Shown here piece by piece: positions 2,528-4,501 of a DNA stretch of 64,000 nucleotides. Every line of letters begins with the position of its first letter. Position 1 is the stretch's first letter. The notes below the pieces were generated by a model. That model saw nothing but the letters and a program-made list of their open reading frames with translations, was not told the DNA's origin and did not search any database. The stretch spans positions 4,306-68,305 of the forward strand of contig OMJF01000154.1 in assembly GCA_900299285.1 (NCBI GenBank), written 5' to 3'. The translations under genes were made by a program, and so were the position numbers. Origin of the DNA: Anabaena sp. 54 (GTDB taxonomy: Bacteria; Cyanobacteriota; Cyanobacteriia; Cyanobacteriales; Nostocaceae).

Positions 2528-4501
2528 ATGCTACCTACCAAGATTATGAGCCTCTGCATCAATCCTAACTGCCTACAGCCCGAAAATCCAGACAATATCC
2601 TTTTTTGTCAAGCCTGTGGTTCAGAATTGATGATACAAGGACGTTATCGGGTTATAATTGAGTTAGGACGTGGTGGTTTTGGTGTTACCTACCAGATTAA
2701 TGAAATTCGTAAAAATCAAGCCAAAGTTCTCAAAGTCCTGATTAATAATCAACCAAAAGCAATAGAATTATTTAAACAAGAAGTCGCAGTTTTAAGTCAA
2801 CTAAATCATCCGGGTATTCCCAAAGTAGAATCAGATGCTTACTTTGTCTATTTTCCCCAGGAAAGCAGAAATCCAATTCATTGTTTTGTCATGGAAAAAA
2901 TTGAGGGAATAGACTTAGAAAAATATATGCAAAACCGTAATTTGCTTCCCATTGATCAAACCTTAGCAATACACTTACTGAAAGATTTAGTTACTATTTT
3001 AGAACAGGTCCATAATCAAAACTTTTTTCATCGAGATATCAAACCATCTAACATTATGCTGAGGGCTGAAAATGCTCAACTGGTATTAATTGATTTTGGC
3101 TCAGTTAGACAAGTTACAGAAACAGTCGTTAATCAACAAGGCAAAGTTACAGCAATAGTTTCAGCCGGTTTCACACCTCCAGAACAAATTAATAATAACG
3201 CTGTACCCCAATCTGATTTTTTTGCTTTAGGACGGACATTTGTTTATTTGCTGACAGCTAGAAAACCGCTTGATCCTGCAATATATGATTCTGATAATGA
3301 GACCCTAAATTGGCGTACTCATGCACCGCAAATATCACCTATATTAGCAGATTTATTAGATGATATGATGCAGCGTTTATATAAAGATCGTCCGCAAAAT
3401 ATTAAGCAGATATCTCAGCGGTTAGCAGCTATAGAAAAAGCTTTACAACAACCTCAAATAAAACCTCAACCACAAAAAAATAAATTTACTCGGCGGGTTT
3501 TTATAAAAACGGGTTTCATAATTGGAACATTTACTGTAGCAGTAGTAGGAAAAAATATATTTAAGAATCAAAATCATAAAATAACAACACCAAAAACTAC
3601 AACTTCTATAAATAGTTCCACCCCAGAACCTACAACATCTCCAAACTCAACTCCAGAAAATACCACATCTTTCACCAAGCTGAAAACCTTTGAATTTGAA
3701 GTTGTCACCACAGACGCAAAGGGAAATATCACTAACCGACGCAACGCAACAGCAAAATACTTCACAGAAGACTTAGGAAACGGTGTTTTCTTAGAAATGG
3801 TAGAAATACCAGGGGGAAAATTTTTGATGGGTTCACCGGAAAATGAAGCGAAAAGAAGTGATAATGAAAGTCCCCAACATCAAGTTACAGTTCCTAGTTT
3901 CTGGATAGGGAAATATGAATTGACACAGGCACAATATCAAGCTATTATAGGAAATAATCCTTCTTTCTTCAAAGGCGATAACCACCCAGTTGAACAAGTT
4001 AGCTGGAATGATGCAGTTACATTCTGTCAAAAGTTAAGCCAAAGGACAGGAAAAAACTATAGATTACCAAGTGAAGCCGAATGGGAGTATGCGTGTCGTG
4101 CGGGAACAACCACACCATTTTATTTTGGTGAAAGTATTACCCCAGAATTGGTAAACTATGATGGTAATCACGTCTACTCATCTGCACCAAAAGGACAATA
4201 TCGAGAACAAACCACAGATGTAGGAAATTTTCCTCCTAACGCTTTTGGTTTGTACGATATGCACGGAAATGTCTGGGAATGGTGTCAAGACAATTTCCAT
4301 GATCATTATACAAATGCGCCTCAAGATGGTACTGCTTGGATTAGTCAAAGCGGTAATGCTAAAATGCTACGTGGTGGGTCATGGGGTGACAATCCCGATA
4401 ATTGCCGTTCTGCTTATCGCAACACCCACTACTTCGACTACAACTTCGATCTTATCGGTTTTCGAGTTGTGTGTGGTGGTGGGGTCAGGGTTTTCTGGTA
4501 G
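2528..4501 (+). CDS. Ser/Thr protein kinase fused to C-terminal FGE-sulfatase (SUMF1/CLec-fold) domain
   Basis: Kinase motifs [21 protein letters not shown]; TM/basic linker; FGE motifs [37 protein letters not shown], GFRVV. Confidence 0.93.
   Translation: [657 protein letters not shown]

Follow-up and report, generated by a model that had tools for sequence, protein, structure and literature searches.

In the 64,000-nucleotide stretch of Anabaena sp. 54 examined here (contig OMJF01000154.1; hereafter referred to as the window), a serine/threonine (Ser/Thr) kinase gene ends in an FGE-type domain of C-lectin fold, and the last ~120 bp of this gene carry the footprint of a diversity-generating retroelement (DGR), a system in which a template repeat (TR) is copied, with adenine-specific changes, into the variable region (VR) of a target gene. 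The VR of the window is most probably a fossil or frozen DGR-made variable region, which could at best be regarded as a dormant remote target. This reading is carried by the homology of the segment to a TR, the adenine-specific pattern of variation in its protein family, the invariance of the segment among strains and environmental samples, and the decay of the sequences that surround it. The original prediction, made from the letters of the DNA, had proposed that the binding tip of this kinase "is, or was, hypervariable". The past tense of that statement is supported by the DGR-made footprint, while the present tense is not supported, in view of frozen orthologs, unchanged metagenomes, a decayed 3' boundary and flank, and the lack of a cognate TR among those compared.

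The codon usage of the gene provides the starting point. Exactly as had been described, ten consecutive codons ending in C stand in a gene dominated by A- and T-ending codons, and they are flanked by the CRSAYR (4400-4417) and IGFRVV (4454-4471) motifs. The third-codon letters of the whole gene are T in 241 cases, A in 239, C in 102, and G in 76, corresponding to 73% A/T-ending codons, and the run is the sole long series of C-ending codons in it. At the background C-ending frequency of 0.142, the chance of a ten-codon run anywhere in the gene is ~2e-6, and when the third letters were shuffled with the Cs of the run retained, runs of at least eight were obtained in 28 of 200,000 trials. The statement that neither a reverse transcriptase (RT) nor a template repeat lies in the window also holds, as self-comparison of the 64-kb window revealed no near-copy of 4300-4520, and a six-frame scan of the same window revealed no YxDD or DGR-type RT motif in a plausible open reading frame (ORF).

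A template of the appropriate type was found outside the window. A distant search of plasmid DNA matched pANA02 of Anabaena sp. 90 (NC_019429.1, locus L001), in which the matched region is a complete DGR composed of an FGE-family target gene, avd, an RNA-directed DNA polymerase gene, and a downstream repeat. This repeat is a 125-nt copy of the 3' end of the target, located just downstream of the RT at L001 10273-10397 with 86% identity, and because all mismatches of this live pair fall at adenines of the downstream copy, that copy can be assigned as the TR. The segment 4365-4488 of the window can be aligned in frame, with no gap, to the pANA02 TR and to those of cassettes from Dolichospermum and metagenomes, sharing the length and reading frame of the pANA02-type TR and matching it at 94 of 120 positions. 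Within this alignment, the C-ending run corresponds to the TR codons AAC AAC AAC AAT/AAC CTC GAC AAC AAC AAC AAC. Eight of its ten codons face AAY codons of the plasmid-type TR, namely seven AAC and one AAT, the latter reading AAC in the TR variant of locus L003. Since the alignment to AAY codons proceeds codon for codon, the C at the third position is inherited from the template, positions 1 and 2 being those that were changed. In total, 38 of the 41 window codons are reachable from the TR through adenine changes, and the remainder of the segment displays the framework shared by the family, as expected of a past target.

The same spectrum is observed in the wider family. In a comparison of 44 unique paralogous kinase ends of the same length with the codons of the TR of the Anabaena/Dolichospermum/Aphanizomenon (ADA) clade, in which A-to-N changes only were allowed, 1786 of 1804 residues (99%) proved reachable by adenine changes alone. 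Each AAY codon is represented by 7-13 residue types across these ends, TAT yields only Y, F, C, or S, ATT yields only I, V, F, or L, and GAC yields D, G, V, or A in 43 of the 44, with codons that contain no adenine being mostly invariant. The spectrum of the paralog family is that of DGR mutagenesis, and the end of the window gene belongs to this family; the adenine-reachable residues of the 44 paralogs therefore indicate that the signature is DGR-made. Through both the alignment to a real TR and the adenine-specific variation among paralogs, the proposal of a DGR-type VR in an FGE/C-lectin domain at the 3' end of the kinase gene has gained support.

Evidence of present-day variation was sought among orthologs and in environmental DNA. 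Five loci (L082-L086) possess ribH, a hypothetical gene, and proA upstream of the kinase gene, and on the basis of this common upstream order they are positional orthologs of the window locus; desaturase genes follow downstream in four of them, and other genes occupy their place in L083. The closest by DNA is L084, from Dolichospermum planctonicum UHCC 0167. The core of the VR is nearly identical in L082, L083, and L084 despite a divergence of ~4-10% from the window elsewhere in the gene. With an expanded set of protein clusters, the number of ortholog proteins rose to 21, drawn from both isolates and metagenomes. D. flos-aquae LEGE 04289, Dolichospermum sp. FACHB-1091, and D. planctonicum UHCC 0167 are among the isolates, and the 21 proteins contain about five VR haplotypes joined by single-base steps (D/N, C/S, Y/S, F/L, D/H/Y, and L/I). 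A single homing event would randomise a dozen codons anew in one step; no such change is seen among the orthologs, which can therefore be considered frozen. Seven DNA metagenome runs from three studies (X1-X6 and X8, 2016-2025) contain the window VR with 0 differences, on a single unbranched 7.2-kb contig in X1-X3, and the only second allele in the DNA runs is the haplotype of the L083 type, in X6. The inter-strain variation that had been suggested as a check over 4385-4455 is thus restricted to these single-step haplotypes, with the seven DNA runs unchanged at the level of contigs.

The sequences at and beyond the 3' end of the VR have decayed. The boundary of the TR/VR homology, which is the presumed equivalent of the initiation of mutagenic homing (IMH) element, contains non-adenine changes at 4482, 4485, and 4486 and one adenine-site change at 4475, so that three non-adenine substitutions lie within the last 7 nt of the homology. 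The TR-identical form of this boundary in paralogs is GGTGCGGCGAG, and L083 keeps a TR-identical end (TGTAGTGGTGCGGCGAGG). The substitutions differ among L084 (GGTGCGGTCAGG), L082 (GGTGTGGTGAGG), and the window (GGTGGGGTCAGG), in all three of which the family stop codon has been lost and the protein runs on to ...VRVFW or ...VRVFS. The base of the TR persists in one ortholog or more at several of the remaining non-adenine mismatches, and the state of the window at those sites can accordingly be attributed to derived drift. Eight VRs adjoining RT cassettes are followed by a conserved flank of ~90 nt (TAGCACTATGCGCTTTTGCCCTCTTGCTC...), at the end of which a short GC hairpin (variants of CTCGCATAGCGAG included) and a T-run are found. 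Examples of this flank are found at L001 8245-8330 and at L088 2110-2200 and 3208-3300, and likewise in L002, L003, L004, L097, and L098. It may serve as a target-recognition element, or may only be a terminator. Recognisable parts of it are kept in L082, L083, and L085, and neither the flank (TAGCACTATGCGCTTTTGCCC...) nor the hairpin (CTCGCATAGCGAG) is present 3' of the window VR. The segment found there instead is 96% identical in L084 and does not align with L082, L083, L085, or L086.

The replacement flank contains the imperfect hairpin to which the original prediction had drawn attention. It is indeed present at 4558-4580, but it is weak, with a DNA fold of -5.2 kcal/mol (z = -1.8) that was equalled in 8 of 200 shuffles. 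As a DGR cruciform it was rejected for this weakness, for its distance of ~70 nt from the end of the homology, and for its position inside a dispersed repeat. As a DGR target element it was likewise dismissed, being kept only in the closest ortholog and bearing no resemblance to the hairpin that follows true VRs. The repeat itself is recognised by a summed depth of up to ~286x over 4540-4586 in X8, compared with ~3x in neighbouring bins, and by separate metagenome contigs that match it with 3-4 differences; no second copy exists in the 64-kb window.

The search for a cognate TR was conducted with the RT protein of pANA02 as query, which led to 80 RT loci kept from species-representative genomes, to which 12 metagenome cassette loci were added. 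In the ADA-clade and closely related cassettes that were inspected, the TR is located directly 3' of the RT; a TR was to be accepted as cognate if >80% of TR/VR mismatches fell at TR adenines. None of the ~95 TRs from the 80 genome and 12 metagenome loci qualified. The TRs of the ADA clade are almost identical among themselves, and the best TRs differ from the window VR over 120 nt by 14 adenine-site and 12 non-adenine mismatches; because of these 12, which are mostly synonymous third positions, they fall short of the usual threshold. The near-copy differing almost only at adenines that had been anticipated was thus found neither in the window nor among these RT-adjacent TRs. A pattern of the subfamily TR/VR, with N at the adenine-derived positions, gave 0 matches in JGI metagenome contigs and matched only three ortholog loci that were already known. 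In X1-X4, in which the strain is present at 7-19x, the ADA-clade RT gene had zero depth from end to end when contigs were placed on a Dolichospermum locus with RT and TR.

We infer from these observations an order of events in which the source genome would finally have lost the element. Mutagenic retrohoming would once have rewritten the last ~120 bp (3' end) of the kinase/C-lectin gene, or of a paralog that was later copied, with an AAC-rich TR as template, of the type now located on pANA02-like elements with avd and RT in the ADA clade. Adenine-specific misincorporation would have converted AAC and AAT to NNC and NNT, leaving the C-ending run on the putative ligand-binding face of the C-lectin fold. 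The element would then have been lost from the lineage, or would no longer have acted on the kinase gene, and ordinary point substitution only would have followed, in the course of which the 3' homology boundary would have mutated. In the lineage of the window, the conserved downstream flank would have been swapped for a segment containing the dispersed repeat, and the present protein would be a Ser/Thr kinase of sensor type whose binding specificity is single and fixed.

Several points temper the reading of a frozen state, none of which speaks for DGR activity on this gene today. The metagenome runs were seen as assembled contigs, which drop rare variants, and VR variants of low frequency would escape. 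The putative targeting role of the 3' boundary and flank follows from their conservation and from the model of the Bordetella phage. Six non-adenine differences from the modern ADA-clade TR (CGT, TAC, TTC, NAT, ATC, and CGA) are common to all four orthologs, which could reflect a slightly different cognate TR rather than drift, and TR variants with two of the six states exist (AAC in L003 and ATC in L009). Patches of 2-4x depth resembling avd and RT appear in X1-X3 against the more distant reference L004, and two contigs of X6 (851 and 741 nt, 7-8x) match L004 3641-4262 and 4397-5130 only in patches. These two contigs look like the avd, RT, and TR start of a divergent DGR in that lake metagenome; their depth is similar to that of the ADA-clade strains there, and the part of the TR that varies is missing from them. 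In Logan, contigs carrying more divergent RTs (P0123 and P0126) also stop at or before that part. In addition, a TR and an RT could lie beyond the 64-kb window, in another part of the source genome or on a plasmid. In a rival reading, the gene would be an active remote target, whose VR would still be rewritten occasionally by a trans-acting RT, Avd, and cognate TR, and the TR variant involved would carry CGT, TTC, NAT, ATC, and CGA at the common non-adenine sites. Remote kinase/C-lectin targets are documented in cyanobacteria (PMC7517822), the existing TR variants and the divergent cassette of X6 would be compatible with such activity, and codon 4448-4450 displays three first-base states among the orthologs. 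An active target is nevertheless very unlikely, considering the single-step haplotypes of the 21 orthologs without re-randomisation, the seven DNA runs without differences, the three non-adenine boundary changes together with the loss of the conserved flank, the failure of all ~95 TRs compared, and of the subfamily pattern in JGI metagenome contigs, to provide a template, and the zero RT depth in X1-X4.

The footprint could also be second-hand, the DGR never having acted at this locus and the diversified 3' cassette having been made in a paralog and imported by gene conversion or homologous recombination. The locus does exist in two forms with unrelated 3' cassettes. In L085 and L086, identity to the window is 85-100% as far as ~4350 and only ~40% from there to the stop codon, VR included, which places the breakpoint at the start of the VR. 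L086 is the closest relative of the window upstream, yet carries the alternative cassette, so that recombination has occurred here, with its breakpoint where the VR begins, and the type of cassette does not follow the gene tree at this locus. Several paralog clusters furthermore share identical VRs. However, retrohoming itself also yields a breakpoint at the VR start, no paralog with the window VR was found among 120 homologs, the positional orthologs alone carrying it, and L083 keeps a TR-identical boundary and the start of a typical VR flank, as a direct target would. An imported cassette is therefore considered unlikely. The alternative cassette of L085 and L086 looks, from its sequence, like an old DGR-type end too, as the flank that follows it has ~74% similarity to the one conserved behind true VRs; it matches none of the TRs compared at better than ~62%. 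An explanation without any DGR, in which the C-run would be a chance or selection-driven island of codon usage in an ordinary FGE domain, could draw on the RGGSW...R...GFR framework that FGE-type domains without a DGR, such as PvdO, share with the window protein. It is already refuted for practical purposes by the chance of ~2e-6, by the match of the run to AAY codons of a real TR, and by the 99% consistency of the family spectrum, and hardly any weight is left to it.

A broader scenario, which we put forward only tentatively and regard as possible rather than probable, would extend the frozen DGR-made VR of the window to the whole family. In this hit-and-run mode, set in the bloom-forming ADA clade, a sporadic mobile DGR resembling that of pANA02 would rewrite dozens of kinase/C-lectin paralog ends in trans and then be lost, leaving frozen strain-specific receptors. 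Decayed copies such as that of the window would no longer be re-targetable, and the L085/L086 cassettes would represent separate episodes. Kinase/FGE paralogs of the VR type (P0008-P0120) occur in many Dolichospermum and Anabaena genomes, several distinct clusters sharing identical VRs. RTs of the pANA02 type were detected in only a handful of ADA-type species representatives (L002-L004, L011, L047, and L077), the match in Trichormus NMC-1 (L047) covering residues 1-275 only. The combination of many VR-type paralogs with a rare RT points to a frozen state for most of these VRs as well. In the species-representative scan, with 80 loci kept, this DGR was found in only two genomes labelled Dolichospermum or Anabaena cylindrica and in about five of Anabaena/Trichormus type in all. 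Among the cassettes themselves, the segment between avd and the start of the RT in L003 (3885-3998) has a summed depth of 150-570x over many contigs in X1-X4 and is another dispersed repeat, and ORFs have been called over the TR region downstream of the RT in L087 (4998-5396) and L098 (5081-5236), one of them with a weak FGE-sulfatase match. Such ORFs are probably artefacts of the TR copying a coding sequence.

Among the targets of cyanobacterial DGRs and the paralogs of such targets, Ser/Thr kinases that end in a C-lectin domain are the most frequent (PMC7517822), and remote targets far from the RT have been documented there (Vallota-Eastman et al. 2020, PMC7517822). The window gene resembles the remote variable proteins of that study in the fusion of a Hanks kinase to a C-terminal FGE-type C-lectin domain, in the position of the VR at the extreme 3' end, and in its distance from an RT. 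It differs from the demonstrated remote targets in that the VR is invariant among strains, its boundary and flank are decayed, and none of the TRs compared is cognate. The gene fits the class of homologs with remnant homology, exemplified by all3226, in which remnant TR-VR homology occurs with no nearby RT (PMC7517822), rather than that of demonstrated remote targets, and it is a further example of a cyanobacterial kind already described, on its inactive side. The DGR on the plasmid of Anabaena sp. 90 has also been described (PMC7517822), and no mention of DGRs together with Dolichospermum was found in the literature searched. The VR of the window has the same family framework as pANA02 and the near-identical Dolichospermum and metagenome cassettes (L001-L003 and L087-L096). 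In the latter, however, the targets adjoin avd and RT, the mismatches all lie at adenines, and the conserved flank of ~90 nt follows, whereas in the window 12 mismatches fall outside adenines, and both the flank and a cassette are missing. TvpA, the variable protein 1 of Treponema denticola (PDB 2Y3C), possesses a C-lectin domain of the same FGE subtype and matches the window protein by sequence (E = 4e-27); its variable residues lie in the C-terminal RGGSW...GFR segment, which aligns with that of the window protein. Unlike the window protein, it is a lipoprotein without a kinase domain, and the last 103 residues are only modestly similar (E = 3e-10).

The DGR of the Bordetella phage BPP-1 and its target Mtd are characterized by adenine-specific mutagenesis of AAC codons, a 3'-terminal VR, and a C-lectin fold, and this system needs a 3' homology element, the IMH, and a downstream hairpin. 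Mtd represents a different C-lectin subtype in a phage context, and the cis elements of cyanobacterial DGRs, which are not known to have been mapped experimentally, are deduced from conservation.

These results imply that a DGR-like codon signature alone does not demonstrate hypervariation at the present day. A suitable annotation for the gene would be that of a sensor Ser/Thr kinase whose C-lectin binding surface derives from a DGR but is fixed, rather than that of an FGE enzyme or an active DGR target. They also hint at a rarely carried DGR as the source of much of the diversity among kinase receptors in bloom-forming Dolichospermum, and if this were confirmed, a mobile mutator could leave lasting diversity among paralogs.

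The features discussed are collected in Table 1. The encoded protein begins with a Cys-rich segment (CINPNC...CQACG), followed by a kinase domain (Pfam Pkinase, aa 40-296, E = 3.6e-32) that displays the Hanks-type motifs GRGGFG at aa 47, HRDIKPSN at 168, and DFG at 189. An FGE-sulfatase domain occupies aa 423-648 of 657 (E = 1.8e-62), and the VR lies inside it, at the 3' end of the ORF. By sequence, the PDB relatives of this C-terminal domain are PvdO (5hha, E = 3e-46), TvpA (2y3c), and FGE/SUMF1. A single Cys, that of CRSAYR, is visible within the RGGSW...GFR segment, and the catalytic Cys pair of human FGE is one that we take to be absent from the C-terminal segment of the window protein. 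The kinase and FGE domains are separated by a hydrophobic stretch and a linker rich in Thr, Ser, and Pro; a membrane topology is possible, judging from this one borderline segment. Homologues of the protein are overwhelmingly from the ADA clade. In L084, the ortholog (2483-4463) is split into two called ORFs (164 and 486 aa), which reflects either a disrupted gene or an assembly error.

Table 1. Coordinates of the features of the kinase gene and its 3' flank (window positions, except where a locus is named)
Feature	Position	Strand	Remarks
Ser/Thr kinase + FGE gene	2528..4501	+	Intact ORF, 657 aa; Hanks-type kinase fused to C-terminal FGE-sulfatase (C-lectin fold)
Hydrophobic segment, possible transmembrane helix	3494..3556 (aa 323-343)	+	Top Kyte-Doolittle 19-residue mean in the protein, 1.55, borderline
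FGE-type C-lectin domain	3794..4471	+	Pfam PF03781; PDB relatives by sequence
TR-homologous segment (VR in the broad sense)	4365..4488	+	Gap-free alignment to the pANA02 TR
Ten C-ending codons	4418..4447	+	CGC AAC ACC CAC TAC TTC GAC TAC AAC TTC
3' boundary of TR/VR homology (IMH-equivalent), decayed	4468..4488	+	Window TGTGTGTGGTGGTGGGGTCAG vs TR TGTGTGTAGTGGTGCGGCGAG
Replacement 3' flank	4502..4586	+	85 nt, common only to the window and its closest ortholog L084
10-nt tandem pair	4512-4531		AAGCTAACAT/AAGCTAACAA
Dispersed repeat	4540-4586		Contains the hairpin 4558-4580
Alternative 3' cassette	L085 4833-4965; L086 4816-4944		Counterpart of window ~4350-4501

Downstream of the kinase gene, three consecutive ORFs of 358, 373, and 271 aa are located on the minus strand (4708-8044), and their counterparts at the ortholog loci match PF00487, the family of fatty-acid desaturases. 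The kinase and desaturase genes converge, and the interval between them yielded no call of a canonical terminator. A contig of the metatranscriptome run X7 extends over 4449-4700 and probably represents the convergent desaturase transcript. Between the two genes lies a 16-nt inverted repeat (4612-4651, 88% complementary, with an 8-nt spacer), which is largely kept in L082 and L084.

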